64,000 nt of DNA from Chiloscyllium plagiosum (lineage: Eukaryota). The stretch is from positions 11,319,122-11,383,121 of the forward strand of contig NC_057750.1 of assembly GCF_004010195.1 (NCBI RefSeq). Reading direction: 5' to 3'. Each line of letters opens with the position of its first letter. The stretch's first letter is position 1. This document shows positions 2,401-57,734 of the stretch, piece after piece. Under the pieces are notes generated by a model, which did no database searches, was not told where the DNA came from, and worked only from the letters and a program-made list of their open reading frames with translations. Position numbers and translations under genes: made by a program.

Positions 2401-3212
2401 TATTCACTGAAGGTGTAATGTGCTGTATTTAGGTTACACCTTGAATATGCTATGTCCAGCTCCAGTCATCAAGGCACAGAAGAAGATCCAAACTGTGACA
2501 GTGCTGGACAGAAGGGCCACAAAGCTGATCTCTAATGTCAAAGAACAAGGAAAAATTTGAAAAATAAAGGTACTTCAGTCTAAAAGTAGGTGAAGCAGAG
2601 AGTTCCTAAGAGGGAATGCTAAAAATATATTTCGAAATAAAGCAAATTGAAGCAATTTTACAAGTTAAATCACAAGCCTGATGATAGCAAGACTGATAGC
2701 AAGGAAACATTTTGCCACTCAGAGTGATTGTACTCTTGGAAGAAGAGTGAGGGGAAACTCAGAAACTGCTGCTTAGATATTGTTTAGATACAATAATAGG
2801 CATTTTCGCAGGCAATAGGGTAAATGGGTACAGTGACTTCCCTCATCATTGAATATGGTCCCATTAGACACTCTACACCAGGAATCCTCCTGCCTGTGCT
2901 CCATGAAAGGTATTATCCACTTCCCCCTTTTTCATTAGCTGGAATTTACAATAGAAGAAGGTGCAATACTAATCCTGGAATTCCCTCCCTCAGGGCATTG
3001 TGGACCAACCTACAGCACATGGACTGGAGTGGTTCAAGAAGGCAGCTCACCACCCCCTAATCAAGGGCAACTAGGGACAGGCAATAAATGCTGGCAATAC
3101 GTGAAAAACTTTTTTTTAAAATTAGCTATGGTCTAAATGAACGGAAGAACAGTCTTGAGGGGTATACTCTTGTTCCAACTTTCAGAAGAAACATGTTCAT
3201 AAAGAGACTAGA

Positions 3213-3432
3213 GTCAAAAAGTGTGGTGCTGGAAAAGCACAGCAGGTCAGGTGACATCCAAGGATCAGGAGAATTGATGTTTTGGCCATAAGCCCTTCGT
3301 CACATTCCTGATGAAGGGCTTATGCGCAAAATATCGATTCTCTGGATCCTCGGATGCTGCCAGACCTGGTGTGCTTTTCCAGCACCACACTTTTCAACTC
3401 TGATCTCCACCATCTGCAGTCCTCACTTTCTC
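3213..3432. mobile_element. Palindromic PLE-terminus element (two inverted ends, each with a degenerate hammerhead)
   Basis: Inverted arms centred near 3302. The 15-bp TSD cataaaga(g/a)actaga lies at 3198-3212 and 3433-3447. Confidence 0.85.
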
Positions 3433-4039
3433 CATAAAGAAACTAGATCCAAGATCAGTCAAGTATGTGGGTCAGGAAATGATAATAAATGAATTAACAA
3501 AACAGCAGAACCCCCAACAGCCAATAAAGACACAAACTTAATCATGTCGTTAAACAAGGAAAACAAAAAGAATGTGCCAGGATGCTTGTCAGGAAGCTGC
3601 AATTATTCTCAAAACCATGAGGCGAAAGAGGAAGATCATTAAGGAGTCTGACTCCTGACTTCTCAATAATGTGGATAAATGTGTGAATGCCAGATGAAAA
3701 CTGAATTACGGCATTTGATGGTAGAATGCTCACTCTCTCACACAGACACACATTCACGGGAATGGTGATTGGGCAGCTTATTGATGCCTACCAGTTTCTG
3801 GGGAAACAATCCAGCTTCTATACACAATGCCTCCCATAGAAAATTGGAACAGCAAAGAGAGTCTGAAGAAGAGTACCAGGTCACCAAAAAGTTGCACTTT
3901 GTAAACTTTATCCTGCTCCGTACAAAAGACAAATCTGAGCCATGAATACTTCCAGATTTGTTACTCAAATTTCTCACTATTCTGGGACTTGTTTGGGGTA
4001 TGGGTAATGGGATAACATTTTTGTCCTAAAGCCCAAAGA

Positions 4040-4595
4040 GTACAGGAGGAGTGAAGTCTTGCTTCAATTTTAAAGCAGCTTCATTAGACTGCACCTGGGT
4101 ACTGTGTGTAGTTTTGGTGTCCTGATTTCAGAAAAGATATTATTGCCATAGAGGGAATGCAACAAAGGCTCACCAGACTTGTTCCTGGGATGGCACTATT
4201 GTCCTATGGAGAGAGATTGTGCAAATCAGGCCAGTACTGTCCAGGGTTTCAGAGCTTGAGAGGTGTTCTCATTGAAACCTATAAAATACTTACAGGATTA
4301 AAAGGGTAGATCCAGATAATATGTTTCCCCAGTTGCAAGTCTAAAACCAATTAGCACAATTTTTTAAAAAAACGGGTACCATTTAGGTCCAATATATGGA
4401 GATTTTTTTTATGCAGAGGGTTGTGAATCTTTGGCTTTGAGTATATTTAGGTGTGAATAGATTCCTCATTTCTCAAATTGTGTACATAATTATGGGGATT
4501 AGTGGCTAAAAGGCACTGAATTATTCGATCAGCCACGATCGTATTGAATAGCGGAGCAGACTTGGGTTGAATGACCTACTCCAATTCCTATTACA
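4040..4595 (+). mobile_element. Decayed CR1-type LINE 3' fragment
   Basis: attagactgcacctgggtactgtgtgtagttttgg is a [12 protein letters not shown] remnant, followed by a CR1-like 3' UTR. Confidence 0.7.
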
Positions 4596-4669
4596 AATCA
4601 CCATGTAACAGTAACGTTAAGCAGCAAATCTCAAATATCCTTCAAAAATGAAATTAGTTGACTGAAAAA

Positions 4670-4935
4670 AACTTATATTCATATAGCACCCTTCACAAGC
4701 ATAGCAGCCAATTTACACACATCAAGCTCCCACGCAACAGCAGTGTGATAATAACCAGAGAATCTCTTTTATTGGTATAGGGATAACTAACAGCCAGGAC
4801 ACGTGAAAAAATCGTTCCTACTTTTCTTCAAAATAGTGCAATGGCATCTTTCTATCATCTAGCCAAGAGGGGAGCCCACATCTTGGTTTCGTTCTTAACC
4901 CGGAAGTTGGAACCTCTGACGGTGCATCACTCTGT
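4670..4935 (-). mobile_element. DeuSINE (SacSINE/AmnSINE-like) remnant
   Basis: The reverse complement has Deu-domain motifs (aaagatgccattgcactattttgaagaa...gtcctggc...atccct) also seen at 12770, 39215 and 52190. Confidence 0.65.
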
Positions 4936-5336
4936 GCTGTAAGTGCAGTTATTTTCCTGGATTTTCTATAGAATGGGGTCTGACATAAAGGAGTGGCAAT
5001 ACTACTATTCAGCTGCAGCTGTTATGGTGCAAGTGCACATCCTGAAAATGTGAAAGATGCGATAGAAATGTTAGCTCTTTTAAAACATATACTGCAAGCT
5101 CCATTGTAAACCAGCCCTGATCCAAAATAACGTGCCAGTTTCTCTGTACACCCCACAAACTTTCGAAAATCCCATTTGGTGCTCGTAACCGTTGTGATTG
5201 ACTCTTAACTGCTGCCTGAAATGGCCATCAAAATCCACCGTAATCACAGTTTGGAGGTGATGATAGGTACATCTCAAAAATGAATTTTGAAAACTGCCTC
5301 CCTTACTTTCTCTGATTATATATTTTTAGCTGCACT

Positions 5337-5342
5337 TTTATT
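5337..5342 (-). terminator. Candidate polyadenylation signal (AATAAA) of thioredoxin-like gene A
   Basis: tttatt on the + strand, about 80 nt downstream of the stop at 5422. Confidence 0.5.
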
Positions 5343-5421
5343 TATCCAGAGAATTCAAACTCCAGTTAATTTTTTTGGCTTTTGTGTTTCCCTGTCTATT
5401 TTTTAACTTATAACAGGCCGC

Positions 5422-5739
5422 TCACTGCAGCTCGTCCAATAGGCGCTCCAACTTCTCCCTCTTGGTCCCCGAAAATTCTCCCATTCTGGCCGAGCGCCGG
5501 AAGAAGTGGAAGGTCGGCATGCACGTGATGCCGGCGGACCGAGCCAGAGGCTCTGCGTCGTCGACATCCACCTCCACGAAGACGACATTGGTCAACTGCT
5601 CCGAGAGGTTGTAGAAGTGCGGTCGGATCATGCGGCAGTTGCTGCACCACTCAGCCGAGTACATAACAACCACTAGCTGCTCGGTCTGGCTCAACAGGTT
5701 CTGGAACTGCTTGGCGTCCTCCACGTGTCTCACCACCAT
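5422..5739 (-). CDS. Intronless thioredoxin-like protein A (105 aa), active site WCSNC
   Basis: Co-linear with vertebrate TXN1 and the same length: SAEWCSNCRMIRP, FVEVDVDD, CMPTF (cis-Pro), EFSG..EKLE. Kozak gcagcATGG, intact ORF, CpG-rich. Confidence 0.9.
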   Translation of the reverse strand: MVVRHVEDAKQFQNLLSQTEQLVVVMYSAEWCSNCRMIRPHFYNLSEQLTNVVFVEVDVDDAEPLARSAGITCMPTFHFFRRSARMGEFSGTKREKLERLLDELQ

Positions 5740-5743
5740 GCTG

Positions 5744-5905
5744 CTTCCGGGTCCGTGCCCCGCTTCCCACTGGCCCCGCCCTCAAACCCGCACCCTATTA
5801 TGACGAAGGTCGACGTCAACATCCCATTGGCTGATTCTCATTGGCCGCTACGGTTTGCTACTTTTTTCATGAATGGGTCGGAAGGGCGTCAGCTCCATTG
5901 GCTGG
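5744..5905 (-). promoter_or_regulatory. CpG-island promoter of thioredoxin-like A
   Basis: ETS CCGGAAG (5744-5750, minus), GC box (about 5774-5781), CRE-like gacgtca (about 5812-5818), and three CCAAT boxes on the minus strand (about 5826, 5841, 5897). Confidence 0.65.
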
Positions 5906-6084
5906 AATGGGGTGATTGACGGCGCAAATAGCCTATCAGAAAGTCCATCAAGGCGGTTTCGTAACCACCCCAATTCTATTCAAAACGACCGGAGACGGTG
6001 GATCTGAACTTGCCAAGGACAGATTTCACAAACAGCAATGATATAATGCTCTGTTAAAAGGTCCTGGTGGAAGAGGGTTAGTTA

Positions 6085-6218
6085 GGTAAAAACAATGACT
6101 GCAGATGCTGGAAACCAGATTCTGGATTAGTGGTGCTGGAAGAGCACAGCAGTTCAGGCAGCATCCGAGGAGCAGTAAAATCGACGTTTCGGGCAAAAGC
6201 CCTTCATCAGGAATAAAG
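6085..6218 (-). mobile_element. Short PLE-terminus element carrying an intact-core hammerhead
   Basis: The reverse complement is nearly identical to 15118-15216 and extends into the PLE 3' tail. Confidence 0.8.
6178..6215 (-). ncRNA. Minimal type-I hammerhead ribozyme motif
   Basis: Minus strand reads ATTC-CTGATGA-A-GGGC-TTTT-GCCC-GAAA-CGTC-GATT. All core nucleotides are present, with a palindromic ACGU stem III; stem I is weak. Confidence 0.7.
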
Positions 6219-6928
6219 GAGTGTCTCTACCTTTGAGGGTTCGCGTCCCACCTGCCCGAGAGGTGTGTAATAATATACCTAGGCAGGTTAATTAAAATAT
6301 GTAAACAAAATAGCGATCCATTCATGGTATTATTCCTCCCCCTGCCTGAGGGCCATGAGACTGAGGTTCAAGGCCTGCTCCCAAAGTGTCAAAACTGCCT
6401 GAACAGGTTGGTTAGAAATATGACCTGTTCTGAGTTAATTAACCTAAAACTCTCAACTATGCTTCTCTCTTCGCAAATGCTGCAAGATCTGCTTCAGTAT
6501 TTCCTGCATTCACAGTATTTTACCCCAGAAACAATGATCAATTAATTCGAGGGAGACTCATATTGGACTCAAAACAGTAACTCTTTCTCTCCACGGGTGC
6601 AGCCAAACCTACTGATTTTATCCAGCACTTTCTTTTTTTTTATAATTGATCTTTGTAACTATTGTTTGAGGATAAATATTGGCCAGGACAACAGGAGAAC
6701 TCCCCTATTCCTAGCTCAGAAGCAGATCAATTAGTCAAATTAGCCTTTACTTGTTTCATATGCATGTCTCCTCCTATACCTTCAATTCCATTTTCAGTAG
6801 CATATGTTTCTACTCTCTTTTCTCTCATGTACTCATCTAGTCTCTTTTTGAAAGCATATTTGCCTTGAAACTTCCAATCAGCCTCTTTTGTCTGCTCCAG
6901 TCCTTCAAATGAACATCATTATCCACAA

Positions 6929-7640
6929 GGAGAAAGTGAGAACTGCAGATTTTGGAGATCAGAAAAGTAGATCAGGCAGCATCGCAGGAGCATCGATGTT
7001 TCGAGTATAAGCCCTTTATCGGGAATATGGTAGTGGAGAAGAGGGCTGAGAGATAGGAGGGTAGGGGTGAGGGTGAGGTAGCTGGGAAGGCGATAGGTAG
7101 ATGCAGGTGGGGGGTAATGGTGATAGGTCGGAGGGATCAGAGGGGAGGAATAGGTGGGAAGGAAGATGGACAGGCAGGACAGTTGGATCTGGGATGAGGT
7201 GGGGGGAGGGGAGATGAAGAAACTGGTGAAGCCATGTGATTGCAGGGTCCCAAGGCAGAAGATCAGGTGTTCTTCCTCCAGGCATCAGGAAGAATGTCTC
7301 ATCTTCCTCCTTGGGACTCTTCAACCACATTGCAGCAACGTCGACTTCACCAGTTTCCTCATCTCCCCTCTCCCACCTCATTCCAGGTCCAACCCTCCAA
7401 CTTGGCATCACCTCTTGAACAGCCCAACCTGTCCATCTTCCTTCCCACCTTTCCGCTCTACCCTCCCATCTAACCTATCACCCCCCCACCTGCATCTACA
7501 TATTACTTCGCCCCCACACCAGCCCTCGCACCCTCCTGTTTACTTCTCAACCCTCTCCCACCCACATCCATCCACTACATTCCTGACAAAGCCTTTGCCC
7601 AAAACATCGATTCTCCTGCTCCTTGAATGCTGCCTAATTT
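6929..7640. mobile_element. Older inverted (fold-back) PLE 3'-end pair
   Basis: The minus arm (about 6929-7290) and plus arm (about 7290-7640) both carry EE.LIF.LGTLQP remnants and degenerate hammerheads (about 6992-7026 minus, about 7579-7615 plus). Confidence 0.75.
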
Positions 7641-7644
7641 CTAA

Positions 7645-8252
7645 ATGTAGGTTTGCTCACTGAGCTGGAAGGTTTGTTTTCATCACCATATTAGGTAACA
7701 TCTTCAGTGAGCCTCCGGATTAAGCACTAGTGGTGTAGTCCGCTTTGGATTTATATGTTTGGGTTTCCTTGGGTTGATGATGTCATTTCCTATGGTGATG
7801 TCATTTCCTGTTATTTTTCTCATGGCATGGTAAATGGGATCCAAGTGAATGTGTTTGTTGATAGAGTTCTGATTGGAATGCCATGCTTCTAGGAATTCTC
7901 GTGCATGTCTCTGTTTGACTTGTCCTTGGATGGATGTGTTATCCCAGTTGAAATGGTGTCCTTTCTCATCTGTATGTAAGGATACTAGTGAGGGGGGGGG
8001 GGGTCATGTCTTTTTGTGGCTAATTAATGTTCATGTATCCTGGTGGCTAGTTTTCTGTCTGTTTGTTGACTGTAGTATTTGTTACAGTTCTTGAAAGATA
8101 TTTTGTAAGTGACATTAATTTTACTTGTCTGTATAGGGTCTTTCAAGTTCATTAGCTGCTGTTTTAGTGTGTTGGTGGGTTTGTGGGCTACCATGGTGCC
8201 AAGGATGATGACTTGAAAGACCCTATACAGACAACAAGTAAAATTAATGTCA
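7645..8252 (-). mobile_element. Second PLE family (Poseidon/Penelope-type) GIY-YIG remnant with short 5' inversion
   Basis: The minus strand translates to AHKPTNTLKQQLMNLKDP..NVTYKI...RKLATRIHEH...HHFNWDNTSI...HAREFLEAWHS. A hammerhead-like CTGAAGA-TGTTACC-loop-GGTGAT-GAAA is at 7678-7710, and 8110-8148 is inverted at 8211-8252. Confidence 0.75.
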
Positions 8253-8574
8253 TGGGTACCGCTGCAGAATACTCAGTTGAGAATCCTGATAGGGTGACAT
8301 GCACAGATAGGCAGGCACTTTAAGATGCTGCGTATGTCAGCTGGCCCATCAAACACTTTCCTGACACTGTCAAGGACATGGAAAAATCCAGCTTCCAGCT
8401 GGCAGAAAGTATTACTACAGCTAGCCTATTCCCCAGCTGTGGTTCTATTTCCCTATCCTGCTGAAGACCCAGAGGTGCTCGCACTGCTACCACACTCTTG
8501 CTGCAGTCTATGTGTGGACTGGTCATCCGTTTTTCCTCCTTTCCTATGAGGTGCAGCAACACACTAGCATATAT

Positions 8575-9025
8575 TACCAAGGTTGGAGGATTTGCATTAT
8601 AGGGAGAGGTTGAATAGGTTGGGGCTATTTTCCCTGGAGCGTTGGAGCTGAGGGGTGACCTTACAGAGGTTTATAAAAATCATAAGGGGCATTGATAGAG
8701 TAAATAAACCCCGGGGTGGGGGAGTCCAGAACTAGAGGGCATAGGTTTAGGGTGAGAGAGAAAAGATATAAAAGAGACTTAAGGGGTAACTTTTTCACGC
8801 ACAGGGTGGTGCGTGTGTGGAATGGGCTGCCAGAGGAAGTGGTAGAGGCTGGTACAATTGCAACATGTATGAGGCATCTGGATGGGTACATGAATAGGAA
8901 GGGTTTGAAGGGATGTGGGCCACATATTGGCAGGTGAAACTAGATTGGGGTGGCATATCTGGTCGGCATGGACAAGTTGGACTAAAGGGTCTGTTTCCAT
9001 GCTGTACATCTCTATGACTCTATGT
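8575..9025 (+). mobile_element. CR1/HER1 LINE 3' fragment
   Basis: SRTRGH.F.VR...RGNFFTHRVVRVWNGLPEEVVEA is the CR1 ORF2 C-terminus; ends in a ctatgact tail. Confidence 0.85.
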
Positions 9026-9061
9026 CTTGTGAGCTAGACAGTTGACTGATGGTATAGCACA

Positions 9062-9255
9062 GCTGAAAATGTGTTGCTGGAAAAGCGCAGCAGGTCAGGC
9101 AGCATCCAAGGAACAGGAGAATCTACGTTTCGGGCATAAGCCTATGCCCGAAACATCGACTCTCCTGTTCCTTGGATGCTGCCTGACCTGCTGCGCTTTT
9201 CCAGCAACACATTTTCAGCTCTGATCTCCAGCATCTGCAGCCCTCACTTTCTCCT
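9062..9255. mobile_element. Near-perfect palindromic PLE-terminus element
   Basis: About 78-bp inverted arms around a 4-nt loop (gggcata-agcc-tatgccc, 9132-9149). The 15-bp TSD tga(t/g)ggtatagcaca lies at 9047-9061 and 9256-9270. Confidence 0.9.
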
Positions 9256-10776
9256 TGAGGGTATAGCACAACCAGGCAGCAATAGTTGATCTCCATAAAT
9301 GGGTTATGCAACCAAATTTGTAGCTCATACATCACACCAACATTTAATAGTTTCTCAAATTTATAAAATACTCACTCATATCACTTTGACCACCTGCTGA
9401 AGAAGCGCCGCTCCAACAGCTAGTGATTCCAAAAACCTGTTGGACTATAATCTGGTGTTGTGTGATTTTTAACAATGTAAACACTCTTCCAACTCACCAT
9501 TCAGGCAACCCTTGCCAGTTAATTAATTTAATCTAGATGAAGGTTAAAAATCACCCATGATTTTCAACATAACTTATTCATAAACACCAATTATCTGATA
9601 TGGTTTCCCCTGTCCAACAGTATGGTTGCAGTTAGGGTACTCATAAAAGTGACTTCTTACCTTCTCAATCTCTATCCAGGTCTACACCCTAACATCCAAC
9701 ACTAGGATCATTTCTCTTGTATTGTATTGGCACTATTAATAGAGCAGTTGTTCGCTCCATCTTTACCAAGCTTCCTGCACTTTCTAAATATCACATACTT
9801 ATGAAATTGCAGGTCCTAGATTTTGGTATTTTGCGACCATGTCTCGGTAATGACTACTTATTTCTATTTATGATGCAAAATCATGTTTTGTTACCAATTC
9901 TTTTTTTTTACTGTTTTCTAATCTTTGGTTCTACCTATTGTTACACTCTTACATTAGTACACTTTATCCCTTCCTATCATGTTCTGATACAATTTGCTTC
10001 ATTGCTACCGTGCTCTTTTACCTTATCTCCTGTATTAACTGATAGAATCTTTCACAACTTGATCCCTTTCCCCCTAATATGTAAAGTCCTCTCTTCTGAC
10101 CTAGTTATGGCGCGCCAGAGCACAGGTCCCAGGAAGTTCTGCTGAAGACCGTTCCATCAATATAGCTACCATTTTCCCAGTAGTGGTGACCCAGGAATCA
10201 AAAGCCATTTCTCTCACGTCAATTTTTGAATCACACATTTAATTTTATTTACAGAATGTCAGTTTCCTTCTGGCCAGCATAAATACAATGGACCAAAGAG
10301 CCTGTTTCTGTGCTGTAAAAACCCTATGGCGCGAATGTTAAAAAGAAAAACACGCGTTTGAAATGCTATAGGATACAATGTGGTCCAGTGGTAGTGTCCT
10401 TTCTCCAAAACAGAAGGCATTGGTTCAAGTACCACCTGTTCGAGACATGTGTAATAGCACGTTTGAATAGTTTGATTAAAATTGTCTAAAATACAAAGAT
10501 TAAAGCAGCTTTTGATTATGCCTTAACTGCGCTAAGCCTGATCTCGGATTGATCATTGCTGAGTATTCAAAGTGGAAAAATATTCCTACTCACATCATTG
10601 AGCACACAAGTGCTGCCAAATCCTACTGGTAAATGATATCCCCAGTTCTGTATTTTGGAATGGAATATCCACGATTACGTTTGCTTGGTACCAATTATTA
10701 TTTTATAAACTTGCCCGAAAAATATAACCTTTCTCTCACCTAGAAAATGAATACTACTTAATATATCTAAAATACT

Positions 10777-10835
10777 CCGAAAGCTAGTGCTTCCAATTAA
10801 ACCTGTTGGACTATTACCTGATGTGTGATTTTTAA
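10777..10835 (+). mobile_element. Tiny PLE-terminus insertion (third family; 3' half of a hammerhead)
   Basis: ccgaaagctagtg...aaacctgttggactat is shared with 9390-9470, 38572-38731 and 48480-48562. The 10-bp TSD ctaaaatact lies at 10767-10776 and 10836-10845. Confidence 0.7.
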
Positions 10836-10973
10836 CTAAAATACTACTGGTCAATTGCTTGAGAACGGGGTTGGAATAATGAGGTGAATGGTGCGGTAAT
10901 GCTCTGTGCTGTGAAACCTCCGTGACTCTAATCTTCAAAAAGGGGAGAAAAAGAAAACGCAGACAGAAAACCA

Positions 10974-11342
10974 TTAGGTATTGGCCTGCTTTAATTTAGG
11001 TGAACACTGCAAATCATCTCCCTGCAGCTTTTGGATCATCCGCTCCAGAAGGCAGCGGTTGGGTCCCTTGAACTGAAAGATCTTGGCTCCGGTCCTGTAG
11101 AACTGGAAGGTGGGGAACCACTCAATGCGGCAAAGCTGCACCACGTCCTTGGCTACGTTGATGTCAACCTCGTAGAAGGCCACCTCCGGATAGGACTCGG
11201 CGAACTCATCGAAGTAGAGCTGGATCATCTGGCAGAACTCGCACCAGTGCGCGGAAAAGAGCATGACGACCAAGCGCTGCTCACTCTCCCGCAAAGCCGC
11301 CTCGAACTCCACCACACACTTGACGGTGTTGACCTCGCCCAT
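10974..11342 (-). CDS. Intronless thioredoxin-like protein B (122 aa from ATG 11342; 132 aa from 11372), active site WCEFC
   Basis: FSAHWCEFCQMI, FYEVDI, WFPTFQFY (cis-Pro) and FKGPN give a thioredoxin fold with a short C-terminal extension. The ATG at 11342 has a strong Kozak (gcgATGG). Intact and CpG-rich. Confidence 0.88.
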   Translation of the reverse strand: MGEVNTVKCVVEFEAALRESEQRLVVMLFSAHWCEFCQMIQLYFDEFAESYPEVAFYEVDINVAKDVVQLCRIEWFPTFQFYRTGAKIFQFKGPNRCLLERMIQKLQGDDLQCSPKLKQANT

Positions 11343-11359
11343 CGCTCCGCCTACTGAGC

Positions 11360-12600
11360 CGGCCCCGCCCATTCAAGACCCTGGGGCCGGCACTTCCACC
11401 CGCAGCCTCGTGACGTCATGGTACGTGACACAGAGACCGCCGACGCCATTGGCCAACACCGTTCAACACCGCCCCGCCAATCACCATCAGCCTCTCCCGT
11501 AACTTAGCAACGTCGGTTAAAAATACATTTCAAAAATGGCGTTCTCACTGTTGATAATTCACGTTCTACCGTCGGTTACTCACAGTCGACCAATGATTCG
11601 CTCCTAAGTCAGAACTCGGTAGTTTGAAACTCTCATCTCAACCCGAAATCGTTTGATTTGTTGGGGTTTTCAAACCAAGTTTCTTGGTCCCCGCCCACAG
11701 CGGAGACGCGATGGCGATTGGGCGAGCGGGCAGTCCGTTGGCGAGACCCGCCTCCGTCGCGATGATGGACGGCATTATTTACCAATCGTAACCGCAGTAG
11801 AACCGACCCCTTTCTCCCGATTGGCCTGTGCCTTCCGACGCCTGGCCAATAGGACAGGCTCCAGGGGGCCTGTAGCTCGAGCTAGTGTCTTGATTTGCAC
11901 CGAGCGCGGCGGCCGGGAGGAGGAGTGCAGACGAGAAAAACAACATGAAGAATTAACTCGGCGGGGAACGGACGGGTTATGGCGGACGGGGGTCGATGAG
12001 GAGGGAAAGCCGTGTCTACCTACTGTGATGATCGGGATATAATTAAAACAAATAATTGCGTCCAAGTAAATCAGCAGGTAGCGACCCGCTCCCAGCGAGA
12101 GTGTGTTTTTTTTTAATTTGATTGCTGTGGTGCTCAGGGCGCCCGTTACACGGCGGCTTCGAAGTGCCCGTTGGTTTTTTTTCCATCATCCAGGCCAGGA
12201 ATTCGCGCTGAAGGAGCCGGTTTCCCAGAAAGTGCCTCTCTGGAAAGGATTGATTCCGGGGGGGTGGGGGGGTACAGTCCTCTTGCCCCACCAAGCCCAT
12301 CTTGTGGGTGGGGGAAGAGGGGGGAGGGGCGGGGGCAAGTTCTCGACAGCTCTAACTGCGCATGGGCGCCGAGCTGGCCGGGACTTGTAGTTCTGGTACT
12401 ATTTCTCCTTTAGAGAGCGAGACTGTGTTGTCTTTTTTTTTTGTAGGAAGGTAGTTGGAGGGTGAAGCATCCCAGTAGAGATTTTAGATAGGCCGACTGG
12501 CCCTGACCCGGTGTTGGTTCCCGTACCGCAGGATTGCAAGGATATCTATCACTCGGTGAACTACAAGGCCCAGCATGCACCGGGTGCAGCCAAGCGCGAA
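11360..12600. promoter_or_regulatory. Bidirectional CpG-island promoter (thioredoxin-like B on minus; SERTAD3-like on plus)
   Basis: GC box 11363-11370, perfect CRE TGACGTCA 11411-11418, several CCAAT boxes on both strands, RFX X-box-like GTAACTTAGCAAC 11499-11511, YY1-like AAAATGGCG 11533-11541, ZNF143-type ACTACAAGTCCC 12380-12391 (minus). CpG-dense. Confidence 0.75.
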
Positions 12601-19995: not shown

Positions 19996-22051
19996 TGGGC
20001 AAATTTTCAAATGATAAAAGAATGAAAGGGTGACGAGTAATGTTGGTTCACTGATTTATAATCTAGAGCATTTTGTCTGAAAGGGTGTTGGGAGCAGATT
20101 CTGTCATCGGTTCAAAGGAAATTGAATACATGAAAAGGAAAGCTTTTGCAAGGTTAAGGGAGTAGTTTGAGTGGTCATCTCCTCTGATCTCCAAAAGCCT
20201 AATTGGACAATCGGGAGAAGATCCAAAGCAGCCTGATTTTCTTTTCACTCTCCCCACCCCAAGAAGCATCTATTGATGGAGTTTGTTGAAGAAGGTACGT
20301 TTTATGAATATATTATTCCTGGTTCAAGTTAGTAATTGAGGGGTAATTTATTTTAGTTCTGGAAAGATTAAAGTTATAAAAGTGAGGGACTTAAAATACT
20401 GGGCTGTAGGCATTTACAGCTAAAGGAATGGCATTTCAGAAAGTTAAATGTTTGTTTAACCAACTCAGAATAGAAGAGATGGCACTATAATACAGCAAGT
20501 GGGCTGGCTTAGCTATGAAGAACTGAAGACACAACATCCGCAATCCTTGCAACAAGGGAGATTTTAAATTTTTTTGGGGAGTTAAATGCTCAACTGGTTA
20601 GAATTCCATGAATGCTGAAATGTTGTGAAGCCACTTATTTCGCCAAATCAAAGAAGAAATTGTAAATAAATAATTTAAAAGCTGATTCGAGGGCATTTGA
20701 AATGGGTAGAGTTTAGACGATCTCTAGTTTCGGTTTATCTGGTTGTTTGCTGCAGGAGTTAGTTTTGGATCGTGTATGGTTTGCAGCTCACAGAGAAGAT
20801 AGCCACAGTAGCTGACAGTCTATTCTGTGAACAAAGTAAAAGTCTTACCTTGGTTCACTGTGTAGAATATGGGTGGGGCTTATTTTCTGTTTTCTGTTTG
20901 AGGGAATAGAAAGTGAATGTTTATCTAGTTGAATTAGAAGATAATAATCTACACTGTGCCCCACAGATTCTTGTTTAAAATAAAGAAATTTGCTGAATAA
21001 GCTGAGTAGTATTGATAAAGTAAACAGAAGAAGGGATCAAAGTATTCACAGTCATAGATGGTAAATTAAAGTTATGCACCTGAGAATAGTTGGAGCTGGG
21101 ACAACGTGAAGATCACCATGATTCTTTGGAGGCTTAATTACAGTTGTTCCCTACAAACATTTTTTTTAAACCTTTTAAAAATTGATCTGTCTTGGAGAAT
21201 GCTTAACTAAAGTAGGGAGTAAACCCAAGTTCATTACATAGTTATAAACTATATTAATCAAAACAAAATCTATTCACTTATAATAACTGTTATAATAACT
21301 GAATATTCCCTGTTACCATGCTGGTAGAGGACATTAGCATTACCTCATTAATGTCCAAGGAAACCTGCTCTGCTTAGTGCTCAGCTGTCTCACTCCCCAC
21401 TTGTTGCTTCATCAGTGTTGCCCTCCCACATTCGGTGCCCTGCTTGACGTGCTATAGAGCACAGTAGTGAGTGCGATGAAGTCAGTGAAGGATGAGGAGC
21501 AGGTCGTGCAAGTATTCAGAGTGGGGTAGTGAAAGAATTAGGATCCCAGAATTGATTTTGTTTAAACCTTTGCAAGAACATATATTTTCTATTGCTCCTC
21601 TCCTTTAGTGCAGACACCTTGCTGTTGTGTTTTGCTGGCCATTGATGAAACAGGCACTACCACTGCATGGTGATGAGTGTCCCTCCTGCAGTTCTGATGG
21701 CAGTAATCACACCAATACTATAAAGTTTGCTTACTTTCTAAAACAGAAGTGAAATATTTTTGATACATTTTGCTAAAACAGAATATTTTCGGATTTTTTT
21801 TTAAAAAAACATTATTGGTCCCTAACTAGATCATAAGTGGTTAGAGGTTTGGTTGTAATGTAAATGCTGACATTGATTAGATGGGCTGAATGGCCAGTTG
21901 TTTGCAGTAATTCCTGAACAACCAAGCTAATAAATCTTCTTTTGCCCTTTACAGATATGCTAGTGTTGGCACAGATACTAACCATGCCTGTTGGCATCTC
22001 TCTGGGGATCTGTACAATGTTAACAGCTGTCTTTTATCTTGGCAGGTCTCA

Positions 22052-22885
22052 ATGGTTGGAAAGGGTGTGAAGCGGAAGCGCCATGCCGATGGGGGTCTGG
22101 ATTCCTGTCAGAACCTTGCTGACTGTCCGGAGTCCTATAGCCTCAAGCGGCAGCTGGTACTCAACACCTCCCTGAATAAGATGCAGAATGGGCGGGCACT
22201 GCCGGAGCTCAGCCTTCGGCGCACTGTCCTGATTGCTAACACCCTGCGGCAGATCCAAGAAGAGATCCGGCTGGAAAGCAGCCAGCTGGCATCTGCCATG
22301 GCCTTGGATTCTGGGTGTTCGGAATTAGGCAGCCAACGGGATGTCCCACCTTCGCGGCTGACAACTGAGAGCCACCCCGCTGGATTCGGCGATGGCCTTG
22401 AGGACTTTACATCTGCTGCTTCTGATGAGGACCACTCCCTCTCCTCTGCTATCAACTCCATCCTCCGGGATCTTGACATCATTGTTGATGAAAGCCCTTC
22501 ACCTTCAATCCCACAGGACAATCTGGGCCTGCCAGAAGCAATGGACACAGCAGCAGAAGACTGGAACAAAGAGGAAATCCAGTCCACAGAGCCCTGTAGA
22601 CCTTTGGAGTCAGTTTTTGGCAGCTTTGAAATCATGAGCTCTAGTTACCTTGTAGGTGTGACCTTGGATGACCTTTTTCTTGACATTGACACCTCTGTGT
22701 GTGACTGCGATGTGGCTACAGTGGGGCCGGCTCCCAGTGGCCGTGCAGTGCCCCCTGGTGTGGCTGATGACCTGGCTAAGACTTTCACCTCATGCAATTC
22801 CTCTTCTTCATTGGGAGCCAGTCCAACTTTAAGAACTGACCTGAATGACCTGGATCACATCATGGAGATCCTGGTCAGCTCCTGA
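22052..22885 (+). CDS. SERTAD3: SERTA domain-containing protein, SERTAD3-like (277 aa, single coding exon)
   Basis: Basic N-terminus GKGVKRK, SERTA motif RQLVLNTSLNKMQ...SLRRTVLIANTLRQIQEE, DDLFLDIDTS, and C-terminal DLDHIMEILV. Splice acceptor (ttttatcttggcag) 6 nt before the ATG. Paralog assignment rests on motif resemblance and tandem order with SERTAD1. Confidence 0.85.
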   Translation: MVGKGVKRKRHADGGLDSCQNLADCPESYSLKRQLVLNTSLNKMQNGRALPELSLRRTVLIANTLRQIQEEIRLESSQLASAMALDSGCSELGSQRDVPPSRLTTESHPAGFGDGLEDFTSAASDEDHSLSSAINSILRDLDIIVDESPSPSIPQDNLGLPEAMDTAAEDWNKEEIQSTEPCRPLESVFGSFEIMSSSYLVGVTLDDLFLDIDTSVCDCDVATVGPAPSGRAVPPGVADDLAKTFTSCNSSSSLGASPTLRTDLNDLDHIMEILVSS

Positions 22886-27730: not shown

Positions 27731-29795
27731 AGGAGAAAGTGAGGACTGCAGATGCTGGAGATCAGAACTGAAAAATGTGTTGCTGGAAAAGCGCAGCAGG
27801 CCAGACAGCATCCAAGGTTCAGGAGAATCGACGTTTCGGGCATAAGCCCTTTTTCAGGAATGAGGAAGCAGGCTAAGATAAAAGGTAGGGAGGGGGGATT
27901 TGGGGGAGGGGCATTGGGAATGCGATAGGTGGAAGGAGGTTAATCCCTTGTGGTTGGAGGGTTCCTAGGCGGAAGATGAGGCGCTCTTCCTCCAGGCGTC
28001 GTGTGGCCAAGGTCTGGCGATGGAGGTGGCCAAGGACCTGCATGTCCTTGGCGGAGTGCGAGGGGGAGTTAAAGTGTTCAGCCACGGGGCGGTTGGGTTG
28101 GTTGGTGCAGGTGTCCCAGAGGTGTTCTCTGAAACGTTCCGCAAGTAGGCGGCCTGTCTCCCCAATGTAGAAGAGGCCACATCGGGTGCAGCGAATGCAG
28201 TAAATGATGTGTGTGGAGGTGCAGGTGAATTTGTGACGGATATGGAAGGATTCCTTGAGGCCTTGGAGGGAAATGAGGGGGGAGATGTGGGCGCAAGTTT
28301 TGCATTTCTTGCGGTTGCAGGGGAAGGTGCCAGGAGTAGAGGTTGGGTTGGTGGGGGGTGTGGACCTGACGAGGGAGTCGCGGAGGGAGTGGTCTTTCCG
28401 GAATGCTGATAGGGGTGGGGAGGGAAATATATCCCTGGTGGTGGGGTCTGTTTGGAGGTGGCGGAAATGACGGAGGATGATACGATGTATCTGGAGGTTG
28501 GGGTGGTAGGTGAGGACCAGTGGGGTTCTGTCCTGGTGGCGATTGGAGGGGAGGGGTTCAAGGGTGGAGGAGCAGGATGTGGAGGAGATGCGGTGGAGAG
28601 CATAGTCAACCACGTCTGAGGGGAGATTGCTGTCTTTGAAGAAGGAGGCCATCTGGGTTGTACGGTATTAAAATTGGACCTCCTGGGAGCAGATGCGGCG
28701 GAGGCGAAGGAATTGGGAATATGGGATGGCGTTTCTACAGGGGGCAGGGTGGGAGGAGGTGTAATCTAGGTAGCTGTGGGAGTCGGTCAGTTTATAGTAA
28801 ATGTCCGTGTTGAGTCGGTCGCCCAAGATAGAAATGGAGAGGTCTAGGAAGGGGAGGGAGGAGTCTGAGACGGTCCAGGTAAATTTGAGTTCGGGGTGGA
28901 AGGTGTTAGTAAAATGGATGAACTGTTCAACCTCCTCGTGGGAGCATGAGGTAGCGCCGATAGTCATCGATGTAGCGGAGGAAAAGGTGGGGGGTGGTGC
29001 CAGTGTAGCTGCGGAAGATGGACTGTTTATTAACACCTTCCACCCCGACCTCAAATTTACCTGGACCATCTCAGACCCCTCTCCATGTCTATCTCGGGCG
29101 ACCGACTCAACACGGACATTTACTATAAACCGACCGACTCCCACAGCTACCTAGACTACAGCTCCTCCCACCCTGCCCCCTGTAAACATGCCGGTACCCA
29201 TGGCTACTCTTTTGGTTTGGAGGAAGTGGGAGGATTGGAAAGAGAAGTTGTTCAGAGTGAGGACCAGTTCAGTCAGTCGAAGGAGGGTGTAAGGGGAAGG
29301 GTACTGGTGGGAAAGGAAGAAGCGGAGGGCTTTGAGGCCATCGTGATGGAGGATGGACGTGTATAGGGACTGGATGTCCATGGTGAAGATAAGGCGTTGG
29401 GGGTCGGGGAAGCAAATCATGGAGGAGGTGGAGGGCGTGGGTGGCGTCCCGAATGTGCGTGGGGAGTTCTTGGATTAAGGAGGATAGGAACCCTCCAACC
29501 ACACAGGATGAATACAGATTTCTCCAGCTTCCTCATTTCCCCCCACCCCCCCCCTCCCCACCTTATCTCAGTCCCAACCCTCGGACTCAGCACTGCCTTC
29601 TTGACCTGCAATCTTCTTCCCGACCTCTCCACCCCCACCCCCTCTCCGGCCTATCACCCTCACCTTAACCTCCTTCCACCTATCGCATTCCCAATGCCCC
29701 TCCCCCAAGTCCTTCCTCCCTACCTTTTATCATAGCCTGCTTGGCACACTTTCCTCATTCCTGAAGAAGGGCCTATGCCCGAAACTTCGATTCTC
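27731..29795 (-). mobile_element. Rearranged Neptune-type PLE insertion (RT C-terminus plus GIY-YIG, with two inverted segments)
   Basis: ORF 27873-28652 contains IIYCIRCTRCGLFYIGETGR; RT motifs FTMDIQSLYTSI, NNFSF...VAMGT and LPFLDLSI...YYKLTDSHSYL are present. Perfect 15-bp TSD cttcaaccttgagtt at 27716-27730 and 29796-29810. Hammerheads at both ends. Confidence 0.92.
29757..29792 (+). ncRNA. Minimal hammerhead ribozyme motif
   Basis: CTGAAGA 29761-29767, GGGC-CTAT-GCCC, GAAA 29781-29784, CTTC (stem III palindrome mutated). Confidence 0.55.
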
Positions 29796-32149: not shown

Positions 32150-32355
32150 TTTTCCCCAAATATATTTCTCCAGACTGGACATCTGTTGATGATCATCCAT
32201 TGATATCTCCCTGTGGTTTGCAATTTTGTTTTAGAACATAGAACATAGAAGAATACAGCGCAGTACAGGCCCTTTTCCCCAAATATATTTCTCCAGACTG
32301 GACATCTGTTGATGATCATCCATTGATATCTCCCTGTGGTTTGCAATTTTGTTTT
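32150..32355. repeat. 83-bp perfect direct duplication flanking a 40-bp inverted CR1 tail
   Basis: 32150-32232 is identical to 32273-32355. The spacer 32233-32272 reverse-complements to gggcctgtactgcgctgtattcttctatgttctatgttct (compare the CR1 end at about 47040-47060). Confidence 0.9.
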
Positions 32356-34843: not shown

Positions 34844-35399
34844 TCCTAGGTGTTAGAAGAGGAAAATCTTTCTTCTCCCTTTTAGTTAAATTCAGTGTTA
34901 AGGTTGATCTCAACGTCCTTGAGTCATAGGAGGAAAAGTTGACAAAACTTCTCATTCCTGATCACTTGCCTTGTTTTTACTTGCCAGAGATGGATGTGTG
35001 TAGACATCAGGTGGGCTGAGATGGTTAACGTACATTGTGGATGCATGGTCTCATTCACACTGGGAGAAAGGTTTTTGGAGAGCACCAAAAGGATGTCAAA
35101 AACGTCATCCAAACCTGTTCCTACATTTGATTAAAATCGTGTCTGACCTGGTTGTAGTCTCAACTGAAAAGAAATGCTGGACATCACAGTAGAGAGAAAG
35201 CAAGTTAATGTTTCAAGTCTAGATGACTCTTCATAACTCCTTTCCCTAAACCTGTTATCTACCAAGAGTCAAAATCAGCTCTGGACAGCTGTTGGCGTCA
35301 GACAAAGGCTTTACAGTGTGTTGGCATTCCCATGGGGCCATTCAGGATTCGTACCTCTAAAAGATAGACCACTGAGACGTAGCTGGACGAAAGAATCAT

Positions 35400-36330
35400 T
35401 GGTTCAAATGGCGTCCTGTGTCAATGACCCAAAGCCTACTGCTTTCTGCCTCTGACACCAATAAAACTACAACTCCCGAAAGGCACGCGGAGTGCAGCAG
35501 CTTCGTGCGCAGGCGTTCTCGTCCGGAAGGGAGGTGAGGAGTTCTGGCTGCCCTGCCCCTGATCCACCCCCGTCGTGTTGCCCAGCAACTAGATCCGGGT
35601 CCACGGTCGGGAGTAGCTGACACTGTCCGGAGCGAGTGAAACTGACACAGCGAAAGGTTACAATGTAGCCGAGCGCGCTGACTGGACGCACAGGGTAAGT
35701 TACAAAGTGTCAACCTCATTACCTTTCTAAAGTGGATACTTTTTGTAGCAAGGGAAGAATTACTGCTCCTTGGGGTTTTTAAAAAAAAAACTTTATAGAG
35801 CAGTTACTTTGACTTGAAGTCCAATTTCCCCAAAGTGTGCTGGGATCCCCCGCGATCCTGATTTTTCTTTTTGAAAGACTGACAGGGAAAAAGAAAAGTG
35901 GAGACGGGGAAGGCGCGCGGGGGAGAGCGGGGGGAAGAAGGTAAGAGGCGGTGAGAATTGCGTGAGTACGACTTCGTAAATAGCGAGTGATTCATCGCTG
36001 AGCCTGGCAGGAGAGAGCGCCTTCGGGATCGTGACGAATACAGCAGACTCCGCGCCGACCTTGTCCCCTCCTCTCCAGTTTAACTCTACTGGGACCGTTC
36101 AGAAAGACAGACACACAAAGAGAGAGCGAAACATTCTGGGAGTGGGGTTAGAATTAAAGCAGTTTGAAAGTTTTGCATCCGCGCTGAAAGTTCCGGAGAT
36201 ACGGCGCCTCAGTGGACACAGAGCTCCGATTGCAGCGAGGTCGCCAGTGACCAAAGGGGGTCACAGTTGATTGGTTGTAAGAGACTATATGAGTGACGGC
36301 GACTGTCCAGCTTTCCGTGCTGTCTTGTGC
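35400..36330 (+). promoter_or_regulatory. CpG-island promoter and non-coding first exon(s) of SERTAD1-like gene
   Basis: YY1-like CAAATGGCG at 35405, ZNF143/THAP11 motif ACTACAACTCCC 35466-35477, ETS CCGGAAG at about 35523. Consensus donor CAGG|GTAAGT at 35694/35695 and a second donor AAG|GTAAGA at 35940/35941. Confidence 0.7.
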
Positions 36331-37545
36331 CTGTCAGTGGCGTGCTCCATATCCCCAATACCTCACATGAGTTTTTACGTATTGGTCTAGATTGGTCGAC
36401 TTCGAATCTACACTATCCAGCAATCTTAACCACCACCTCCCCAACTCTATCCCTTTCTCTCCCATTCCATTCTCTTGTGCCCTCTGCGCTCCGTTTCTGT
36501 TAATGTTCCCCTCACCTCCTTTCTATTATTGCTCCTTTGTATTGGTTATCCCCCCACCCCGACCCCCTTTCTCTATATGGTCTCGACTCTTTCTTAGCTT
36601 TTGTTTGCCTATTCAATTCAATCGAAGCTAAAGGATAAAAATGTCAATAAATAAATGGTTACTTAATTAAATATGAGAGGATTCCATAGACCAAGTTCAA
36701 GATTAGAAAGATGTGGCAAAGTGATCATGGCACTAAACTAGTAATGCTGACAGCCAAACTAATCTCTGGAATTACATTTCAAATACCACCACAACCACTA
36801 ATTCTTTGATTCCAAATCAGCTCTCCTTATCTGTCTGGCCTAGATGTGACTCCAGGTACAGCAATGTGATTGACTCTCAATTGACTTCTGAAGTGATCAG
36901 ACAAACTAATCAGTTCTACCAAATCACTTTTAAAAAAAAAAGATAAACTTGATGAATCACTTGGCATCAAACTGGGCAGCGGAAACTACAATGGCACCAC
37001 CAGCTAATTGGGAGAGCAGTCCCATAGGCAAGTAAATAACAGCCTGACACAGTCACACTCATCAAATCATACCTGACAATGTCCCAGACAGCACCACCAC
37101 CATTCCCAGAGTTGATGCCATAGTGATATACAGTTAGAAAGGAGATGTCCTGGGAGGTCTCAACATTGACTCCAGACCCCATGAAGTCCTAGTGTCATTA
37201 TGGCAAATTTAGGCAAGGAAACATCCTGCTGGCTACCCATTACTGCTCCCTTCCTCCACCTCATCTGATGAATCAGTTCTTCTCCCTGTTGAGCACCAAT
37301 TGCAAGAAGCATTGAGGTGAGATACTTCGGTCGCCATCTCCAGCAGTAGCTCAGTAGTACCACAGCCTGAGCTGACCCAGTCCTGAAGGACTTAGCTGCT
37401 AGTTAGGGTCTGCAGCAGGTGGCAATGGAACCAACAGAAGGGAAAAGCCTACTTTACCTCATCTTCACCAATCTACCTGTCACAGATGCATTTGTCCATG
37501 ACAGTATTCCCCTCCACAATGTTGTGTGGTACTATACCATGGGAT

Positions 37546-37835
37546 TTTAGATTAGAGTGGTGCTGGAAAAGCACAGCAGGTCAGGCAGCATCCGAGGAGC
37601 AGGAAAATCGACGTTTTGAGCAAAAGCCCTTCATCAGGAATAGAGGCAGGGTGCCTGCAGAGTGGAGAGATAAGTGGAGCCCTGGAGGCTCCCTGCCTCC
37701 ATTCCTGATGAAGGGCTTTTGCCCAAAATGTTGATTTTCCTGCTTCTCGGATGCTGCCTGACCTGATGTGCTTTTCCAACACCACTCTAATCTAAACTCT
37801 GGTTTCCAGCATCTGCAGTCCTCACTTTTGCCTAT
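37546..37835. mobile_element. Palindromic PLE-terminus element with two CpG-decayed hammerheads
   Basis: Inverted arms at about 37546-37652 and 37690-37795. The 11-bp TSD taccatgggat lies at 37535-37545 and 37836-37846. Confidence 0.88.
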
Positions 37836-57200: not shown

Positions 57201-57734
57201 ATAACTATGCTCTCATTTACTCAAGATAAGAGCTGTTGGTAATTTTTCTGCTTTTCCCACTTCCCTTTTGGACCAAATTTTGTTCCTCATTCCTTGCACC
57301 ATTACATCTCCTTTTGCTTTGCAGCATCATCCCATTAGTCACTCCTGAACCCTATCACTCAAGCTAAGTAATGGATGTTCGGAATCTGATTTGAAAACAG
57401 GAAATAGCCAGTCTGGTGATATTGGCAGAGAGACAAAACTGAAACCTTAAACTCTGTTACTCTCTCTTTATCAATAAATTATTTTAGCGTGAGTAATTAT
57501 GGAATTTCCTACCTGTATTACAAATCTCTCCCTTTAGATTTTCTTCCCTTCTCCCTACTTTTGTCTCTGACTTGTATTTGTGTTTAAAAATTGCTAAATC
57601 TTAATGTTTTCCTGGTTATTATGAAAGATTGCAATGTTTACTTTGCCTCTCTCTGCAGTTGCTGCCTGAGTCTGGTGAGGATTTTTCACCTTTTTCTGTT
57701 TTCAGTGCTGATAGTGTCTTTTTGTTTTGTGCAG

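Follow-up and report, generated by a model that had tools for sequence, protein, structure and literature searches.

Are two intact, intronless thioredoxin genes with non-canonical active sites the remains of retrocopies, or do they belong to a functional thioredoxin subfamily with altered chemistry? The question is raised by a stretch of 64,000 nucleotides from the shark Chiloscyllium plagiosum (contig NC_057750.1 of assembly GCF_004010195.1, positions 11,319,122 to 11,383,121 of the forward strand), here called the window. A model that saw only the letters had predicted a tandem pair of single-exon thioredoxins in it, which we name A and B:

5422-5739, minus strand: coding sequence of gene A, a single exon without internal stops, encoding a thioredoxin of 105 amino acids (aa)
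10974-11342, minus strand: coding sequence of gene B, a single exon without internal stops, encoding a thioredoxin of 122 aa

Both open reading frames (ORFs) were found as predicted, on the same strand and 5,234 bp apart, and both match PF00085 well above the gathering cut-off of 23.5 bits (A: 84.1 bits, E 7.9e-24; B: 62.9 bits, E 3.1e-17). Their motifs VVMYSAEWCSNC and VMLFSAHWCEFC agree with the description in the original prediction. On bovine TXN numbering, A has WCSNC, Met26, Arg36, Arg39, Pro40, Asp58/60/61 and Cys73-Met74-Pro75, and B has WCEFC, Leu26, Leu40, Asn60-Val61, Trp73-Phe74-Pro75, Pro92 and Cys95. The prediction was therefore right about the replacement of Asp26 by Met in A and Leu in B, the missing helix-2 proline of B (Leu40, as opposed to Pro40 in A), the Cys73 equivalent kept in A (Trp73 in B) and the proline at the cis-Pro position of both, which was identified as Pro75 by its place in the sequence. 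It was also right that the two genes are well diverged. The proteins are 38% identical (39/104), only 3 of 15 four-fold sites agree and third codon positions are saturated; blastn of the two gene regions gave only chance matches of 12-15 bp and no meaningful DNA alignment.

From its first ATG the frame of B would span 10974-11372 and encode 132 aa, i.e. it would include one further element:

11343-11372, minus strand: in-frame 10-codon extension of B from an upstream ATG, overlapping a GC box

This longer reading was rejected because the upstream ATG at 11372 is GTG in the sequencing runs X1 and X4 and because the orthologues of B begin at the second Met and are devoid of the extension. The 10 codons are probably not used, and the 122-aa protein starting from the ATG at 11342, the start originally predicted, is the likely product.

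One answer to the opening question is that A and B are decaying processed pseudogenes and that their odd active sites reflect neutral drift. The lack of introns and stem branches as long as 0.72 and 0.98 changes per column (in the 58-row tree described below) would be compatible with decay. Against it stand intact frames in sharks, rays and chimaera with invariant derived motifs, although protein databases hold only intact calls, so that disabled copies in some species would escape detection. Between the window and run X4, which is from a related species, 9 of the 10 coding differences listed are synonymous, compared with an expected fraction of 0.21 (binomial p 6e-6); the uncorrected ratio of nonsynonymous to synonymous differences (pN/pS) is ~0.03. 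For two X4 contigs 17/20 and 17/21 of the differences were listed, leaving at most 7 unseen; in the worst case, with all 7 being replacements, 9/17 would be synonymous.

Expression was judged from 4 of 24 listed runs, of which the contig runs X1, X4 and X7 are only guessed to be RNA. In X19, a raw single-cell poly(A) run, B has a depth of 24-27 at 11011-11049 that drops to 3-5 at 11268-11289. These reads share a single orientation, and the only signal in the other direction is weak (depth 0.7) and lies over the divergent plus-strand exon described below. This strand pattern fits sense transcripts of B. The X4 contigs over A (4653-5762) and over B (10948-11692) are unspliced. In X1, A is represented by a piece of 207 nt, and X7 extends over most of B and has zero depth at 5505-5805. 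Almost no depth (0, 0 and 0.61) is seen in the unique bin 9719-10019. A and B are transcribed and under purifying selection, and they are almost certainly functional. The signs of decay that the prediction had named, i.e. disablements, a dN/dS near 1 and absent expression, were not seen; the pseudogene explanation is already largely refuted and we give it hardly any credence.

Word-index searches returned 12 matches among 15 candidates for A and 7 among 9 for B, and a joint profile search returned 20 matches among 3,338 at E values up to 1e-10. Every named match of these searches is chondrichthyan. The matches sort into A, B, a third paralogue C (WCxNC, Phe26) and one WCGPC protein (P0036). 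The family comprises 34 rows (11 A, 12 C and 11 B) from sharks, rays and, for A and C, Callorhinchus. Orthologues of A in sharks and rays are 84-99% identical and those of B 61-99%; between the window shark and rays, the values are 84-88% for A, 64-72% for B and 77% for C. The predicted tandem pair is thus present, but it belongs to a three-gene cluster whose third member lies outside the window: tblastn of 35 family proteins against the window found only A and B, and no C. In Chiloscyllium punctatum, C has the accession GCC31411, A has GCC31412 and B has GCC31413; in Scyliorhinus torazame a single 102-kb contig carries A and B as consecutive loci; and in Pristis and Amblyraja A, B and C are each on a contig of identical size within the species. 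The gene order would be C-A-B, as read from the order of accessions only.

Judged by their sequences, A and C are older than the chimaera split of ~400 million years ago, because Callorhinchus has an A-like and a C-like protein, whose N-terminal halves are identical to A at 30/47 and to C at 32/48 positions. The C-terminal 58 residues of these two Callorhinchus milii proteins (P0008, A-like, and P0011, C-like) are identical, and their N-terminal halves sort with A and C. This pattern suggests gene conversion between tandem paralogues or a chimera of annotation or assembly, and it is the reason why P0008 groups with C in trees.

An index-free search of 50% representatives was evaluated for the best 150 of 45,258 matches. 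Among these, 40 domains score at least 100 bits and 3 of them are family members; the other 37 have Pro34 without exception (37/37) and Asp26 in 36/37. The one that differs is P0153, an unnamed TXNDC2-like protein with Val at position 26 and an unaltered CGPC; Asp26 was thus lost independently in a further derivative of TXN. One unrelated low-scoring domain has WCENC. No member from outside the chondrichthyans was found among the matches listed in the word-index and representative searches. The former requires shared words, and the latter list consists mostly of multi-domain proteins and can conceal relatives behind their representatives, so that an orthologue in bony vertebrates is unfound rather than excluded. 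Databases name the proteins only "thioredoxin-like" or hypothetical, and look-alikes in the ESM Atlas are generic thioredoxin clusters only. NCBIfam does not discriminate, as five proteins including bovine TXN all fall below its thioredoxin cut-off. We found no literature description of these genes in a search that left subscription papers and supplements aside, so that a mention in a table of a genome paper is possible. A, B and C make up a conserved chondrichthyan subfamily that is apparently undescribed, and the window contains two of its three paralogues. The subfamily is functional and TXN1-related, and the predicted uncharacterised chondrichthyan subfamily is in accord with the searches run. 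The absence of WCGPC and Asp26 sets the proteins apart from classical TXN1.

The column table, on bovine TXN numbering, compares the 34 family rows with 24 other rows. Trp31, Cys32, Cys35, Asp58, Pro75, Thr76, Phe77 and Gly91 are present in 34/34 family rows. Asp26 and Pro34, found in 24/24 of the other rows, occur in 0/34, and position 26 is Met, Phe or Leu throughout (34/34). Arg94 marks 33/34 family rows versus 2/11 TXN rows. Position 39 is Lys or Arg in 10/11 A, 12/12 C and 4/11 B rows. All 23 rows of A and C have acidic residues at 58, 60 and 61 (Asp58 and Asp60 in 23/23), have kept Cys73 and have lost Cys69. In B, Asp58 is the only one left of these acids: Asp60 is seen in 0/11 rows and 11/11 have no acid at 60 or 61. 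Instead, B has Gln36 (10/11), Lys or Arg63 (9/11) and the invariant residues Phe34, Trp73, Phe74 and Phe87 (11/11 each), Pro92 and Cys95.

AlphaFold2 models of A and B, whose alignments took in canonical TXN rows, have mean confidences (predicted local distance difference test, pLDDT) of 93 and 88; residues 111-122 of B, a 12-aa tail predicted to be disordered, are below 50. Both models superimpose on human Trx1 (3m9j) with a template modelling score of 0.96 by target length and a root-mean-square deviation of 0.6-0.9 Å, so that A and B are predicted to have an ordinary thioredoxin fold with the CxxC at the N-terminus of helix 2. Human Trx1 is the closest solved relative by sequence and fold, and identity with bovine TXN is 49% for A and 38% for B. 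Like TXN1, they keep W31, C32, C35, D58, P75-T76-F77 and G91, and A keeps C73-M74. They differ from TXN1 in having CxNC or CEFC instead of CGPC, a hydrophobic residue 26 and a single exon; in addition, A is devoid of Cys62 and Cys69, and B of Pro40, Asp60/61 and Cys73. Sharks also keep separate WCGPC/Asp26 thioredoxins (P0036, P0076).

Did the cluster arise by retroposition of TXN and local duplication, as had been predicted? TXN1 is a multi-exon gene and is not known to lie beside SERTAD1/3. The coding regions of A and B are intronless, i.e. they are continuous ORFs covered by the above-mentioned unspliced contigs of X4, and in Heptranchias a WCGPC thioredoxin with isoforms (P0076) is on a contig of 141.9 Mb, in contrast to A on one of 17.1 Mb. 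The lack of introns together with this separate WCGPC gene suggests that the family probably originated by retroposition. The Heptranchias perlo isoforms P0076 and P0196 on the 141.9-Mb contig contain two fused thioredoxin domains (WCGPC, then WCMPC); they may represent two tandem TXN genes that the annotation has fused, or a genuine protein with two domains. In the 400 bp downstream of A, only short A runs were seen in place of a poly(A) remnant, the survival of which is not expected at such an age.

The main tree has 58 rows and 107 columns (LG+C20+F+G4). It left out the isoforms or near-duplicates P0007, P0023, P0024, P0025, P0029, P0031 and P0189 and most of the 150 representatives, including P0153, and it had no TXNDC8 sequence. 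A and C group together (100/100), B forms a group of its own (100/100) on a long branch, and the backbone is poorly resolved. A clade of A, B and C was never recovered in three trees. A/C and B might accordingly stem from two separate events, e.g. two retro-insertions from different WCGPC parents, with parallel loss of Asp26 and Pro34. Consistent with this, B weakly joins the WCGPC thioredoxins of sharks in a 27-row mixture tree (83/86, not starred), different residues have replaced the lost ones (Met/Phe versus Leu at 26, Asn versus Phe at 34), and the promoters of A and B have no DNA similarity. However, constraining A, B and C to one clade was not rejected by the approximately unbiased test (p-AU 0.38 and 0.24), and the genes are adjacent, equally oriented, single-exon where seen, and alike in Arg94 and in the order of their promoter motifs. 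We regard two origins as a possibility to be taken seriously, albeit a doubtful one. One retrocopy followed by local duplication is plausible because of the adjacency on the same strand, the shared loss of Asp26 and Pro34, the Arg94 in 33/34 rows and the similar promoter motifs. Of the predicted history, the retrocopy is probable, whereas descent of A and B from a single copy is not established by these trees.

A different ancestry would follow if A/C were ancient orthologues of mammalian TXNDC2 (Sptrx-1) that were lost in the lineages between. The 27-row tree joins A/C with TXNDC2 (87/87, not starred), in a 31-row set the tree constrained in this way is better by 2.1 log-likelihood units (p-AU 0.63), and Glu63, Leu65 and Lys/Arg67 are shared. 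These residues also occur in outgroups, both branches are long, and the 58-row tree joins TXNDC2 with mammalian TXN (96/93, starred); we read the grouping as long-branch attraction. Constraining B with TXNDC2 gave a p-AU of 0.069. TXNDC2, like A and B, is a fast-evolving TXN1 derivative with its coding region in one exon; it shares the few residues at 63-67, and the TXNDC2-like P0153 has Val26. It differs in its CGPC-type site, with Pro34 and Asp26 in 6/6 rows, and in its length of 238-660 aa with a long N-terminal extension (named TXNDC2 matches have 330-660 aa and Pro34), compared with the single domains of 105 and 122 aa of A and B. The human TXNDC2 locus is presumably not beside SERTAD1/3. 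TXNDC2 is reported in mammals only (PMC11276731). Taken together, orthology of A/C with TXNDC2 is very unlikely. TXNDC8 (Sptrx-3) is likewise a divergent single-domain TXN1 paralogue of similar size, and a TXNDC8 cluster is among the language-model look-alikes, alongside many unrelated thioredoxins. It is a multi-exon gene beside TXN. In contrast to A and B, it has a CGPC site (PMC6928294).

What do A, B and C do? The simplest mechanism is the usual dithiol exchange, in which Cys32 would attack the substrate disulfide and Cys35 would resolve it, because the fold, Trp31, Cys32, Cys35 and Pro75 are kept. We give the following reading as a whole a probability of roughly 55%. C, A and B would form an old, conserved cluster of intronless, TXN1-derived genes beside cartilaginous-fish SERTA-domain genes, which probably arose by retroposition and a subsequent tandem duplication that yielded at least A and C. 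A and C would most likely be slower or more selective cytosolic disulfide reductases with a narrowed range that are still recharged by TrxR1. In these two, a hydrophobic residue would take the place of the buried acid 26, a basic residue 39 (plus Arg36 in A) would be positioned to keep Cys32 reactive, and the acidic docking patch 58/60/61 and the loop Cys73-Met74-Pro75 are intact. In B, the face for substrate and reductase has been rebuilt (Glu33-Phe34, Gln36, Asn60, Val61, Lys/Arg63, Trp73, Phe74, Pro92, Cys95), and B would most likely be a poor client of TrxR1 with one dedicated partner and long-lived mixed disulfides. As a canonical WCGPC thioredoxin is kept elsewhere in the genome, A, B and C would be specialists and not replacements. 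Of the altered chemistry originally proposed, partners other than TrxR would thus fit B, but not A, which keeps Asp58/60/61.

Published mutants provide the basis. D26I lowers the activity of a thioredoxin and raises its stability, and A39K almost fully restores the activity (PMC9601870); this engineered D26I/A39K protein resembles A/C, which carry Arg/Lys39, in its hydrophobic residue at the Asp26 position and retains reductase function, but it has a bacterial scaffold and keeps CGPC. The efficiency with TrxR1 is cut to 21% by K36E, 57% by D60N, 25% by D58/60/61N and 31% by Q63R (PMC8189816). The reductant providers CcmG, ResA and StoA are naturally devoid of the buried acid, in contrast to the oxidases DsbA, BdbD and PDI, which keep it (PMC3961690), so that the loss of Asp26 does not point to an oxidase. 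These reductases are bacterial and differ in a buried Glu located six positions beyond their first Cys, where A, B and C have Ile38.

Oxidase or isomerase activity was one of the chemistries listed in the prediction. A, B and C would then form or rearrange disulfides, in the manner of the oxidising activity reported for mammalian Sptrx-1, and might do so in male germ cells. This would accommodate the non-GP dipeptides and the intronless genes with CRE-like (cAMP response element) and CCAAT promoter motifs, a pattern known from germ-cell retrogenes; the title of a paper cited in PMC11276731 ascribes an oxidising activity to Sptrx-1. Yet A, B and C have lost the residue at the Asp26 position where DsbA, BdbD and PDI keep a buried Glu (PMC3961690), and inspection of the sequences of A and B revealed neither a His ahead of the second Cys nor a signal peptide at the N-terminus. 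Such activity is therefore poorly supported and rather improbable.

Another chemistry is iron-sulfur (Fe-S) binding by A/C, in which the loss of the CGPC proline would let Cys32, with Cys35 or Cys73, hold a 2Fe-2S cluster that bridges a homodimer and keeps the protein inactive until it is lost by oxidation, as proposed for Grx2. CSYC in human TRX1 allowed Fe-S incorporation with the cis-Pro unchanged, Cys32 and Cys73 have a part in the iron binding of P75 mutants, and IsTRP (NCFAC) and a WCKHC PDI-A bind clusters (PMC6210436). In the CxNC of A/C, x is a small polar residue, and Cys73 is present in 23/23 rows. A, B and C share with the Fe-S thioredoxins of that article (TRX1 CSYC, IsTRP, Arabidopsis TRXo) a non-CGPC site and the cis-Pro, and A/C also Cys73, but the motifs are different. 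Arguing against clusters are Pro75 in 34/34 rows, a residue proposed to keep metals from binding (PMC2757866, with reference to Su et al. 2007), and the TrxR-docking acids, conserved in A/C as in an active reductase. A complex prediction for the A homodimer with 2Fe-2S (score 0.07, mark 0.32) gave no answer and was not used. On balance we consider Fe-S binding unlikely.

Finally, one or more paralogues, above all B, could be redox-inert adaptors that use the thioredoxin fold for binding. B has lost Asp26, Pro34, Lys36, Pro40, Asp60/61, Cys73 and Ala92, and its invariant exposed hydrophobic residues Phe34, Trp73, Phe74 and Phe87 were gained. On the other hand, Trp31-Cys32-x-x-Cys35 and Pro75 are invariant in 11/11 B rows while nearby positions vary, and there would be little reason for a purely structural protein to retain both cysteines, which makes this explanation quite improbable.

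Several points weigh against the reductase reading itself. The functional steps are all deduced from mutants of other thioredoxins, and the rescue by A39K comes from an ancestral bacterial scaffold. Lys39 is also found in 6/11 canonical TXN rows and may thus be inherited and not compensatory. The model leaves the loss of Pro34 unexplained, and A/C might be loaded with a cluster, given that human TRX1 with CSYC bound Fe-S with the cis-Pro intact (PMC6210436). As to origin, a clade of A, B and C was absent from all three trees, no hallmark of retroposition beyond the lack of introns was seen, and B was not found in Callorhinchus in the searches run. As to expression, A has no reads in X19, of which ~2% was read, and the contig runs, which are only guessed to be RNA, also have a depth of 14-31 in the bins 4000-4601.

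Cytosolic thioredoxins hardly ever deviate from WCGPC and Asp26, and most of what is known about the roles of these residues comes from engineered mutants. The present family contains three paralogues in which both were lost in nature, and the new state was then frozen over sharks, rays and chimaera. The genes offer ready-made tests of a basic residue 39 as a substitute for Asp26 and of the effect of the dipeptide on redox potential and Fe-S binding; comparing A, which keeps the docking residues, with B, which does not, tests what TrxR1 requires of the thioredoxin surface. The vertebrate thioredoxin repertoire gains a gene cluster that is restricted to one lineage and apparently unnamed, with the limit that the fold is known and the proteins are already auto-annotated as "thioredoxin-like". 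A far more speculative and improbable view is a private chondrichthyan thioredoxin subsystem kept since before the chimaera split, in which A/C would alternate between a resting dimer bridged by Fe-S and a reductase that is active without Asp26. B would act independently of TrxR as a thiol trap for a single partner, and a shared promoter would couple its regulation to that of a SERTA cell-cycle gene. If true, A/C would be the first natural vertebrate cytosolic thioredoxins with such a switch.

The surroundings of A contain the following features:

5351-6050, strand not applicable: CpG island over gene A, GC 0.53, CpG observed/expected ratio 0.89 (window 0.32)
5776-5901, minus strand: putative promoter of A from a motif scan, with a GC box (5781-5776), TGACGT (5818-5813) and CCAAT at 5830, 5844 and 5901
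5337-5342, minus strand: proximal AATAAA of A; an X1 contig ends at 5335
4773-4768, minus strand: distal AATAAA of A; an X4 contig ends at 4653

The promoter motif combination of A was reached in 1/2000 shuffles, the motifs having been picked after inspection, and an X4 contig starts at 5762, near the putative promoter. The depth of 14-31 in X1, X4 and X7 at 4000-4601, downstream of A, could be due to a 3' end of A that reaches far downstream, to transcription close to paralogue C or to a repeat.

The corresponding features of B and its divergent neighbour are:

11365-11481, minus strand: putative promoter of B, with GC boxes at 11370 and 11474, TGACGTCA at 11418-11411, CCAAT at 11452 and ATTGG at 11481
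10244-10249, minus strand: AATAAA of B, 724 bp downstream of its stop codon
10951-12650, strand not applicable: CpG island common to B and a divergent SERTA-domain gene, observed/expected ratio 0.89 (window 0.32)
11889-12077, plus strand: inferred first exon of the divergent SERTA-domain gene, with the donor GT at 12078
22046-22885, plus strand: coding exon of the neighbouring SERTA-domain gene, with the acceptor AG at 22044-22045 and ATG at 22052; PF06031, E 1.2e-15

The promoter motif combination of B occurred in 0/2000 shuffles, again with motifs picked after inspection. X1 contigs tile 10272-12251, and the depth is 0 in 9719-10019. Loose poly(A) ends at 10813-10814 in X19 were discarded as a 3' end of B because the site is within a repeat. 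The original prediction had placed each gene in its own CpG island; this applies to A, but the island of B is shared with the SERTA-domain gene. The two are arranged head-to-head, the first SERTA exon being ~550 bp from the ATG of B, and one X1 contig covers both starts. The exon at 22046-22885 serves as a locus marker and is not part of the thioredoxin genes. A splice would join it to the exon at 11889-12077; this is inferred only, because the end of X4 contig 16 (5,663 nt) matches 11889-12079 only and its remainder lies beyond the stretch compared. A search of the PDB with the first SERTA protein gave 0 matches.

A second SERTA-domain gene, with a single coding exon at 57715-58530 (plus strand), is 32% identical to the first. 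It probably starts in an upstream exon, because there is no in-frame ATG at the start of the frame, and a CpG island at 35251-36500 is a candidate promoter. The tandem SERTA pair is reminiscent of SERTAD1/SERTAD3.

Elsewhere in the window, 27873-29500 and 43261-44107 contain broken reverse-transcriptase and GIY-YIG-like frames in partly inverted copies (GIY-YIG match E 3.5e-4, below the cut-off), presumably remnants of a Penelope-type retroelement. At 3204-3407, 9058-9223 and 37543-37799, a short interspersed repeat forms inverted pairs that are arranged head-to-head and have a self-complementarity of 80-94%. A perfect direct duplication of 83 bp at 32150-32355 (32150-32232 and 32273-32355) is possibly a recent tandem duplication or an assembly artefact.

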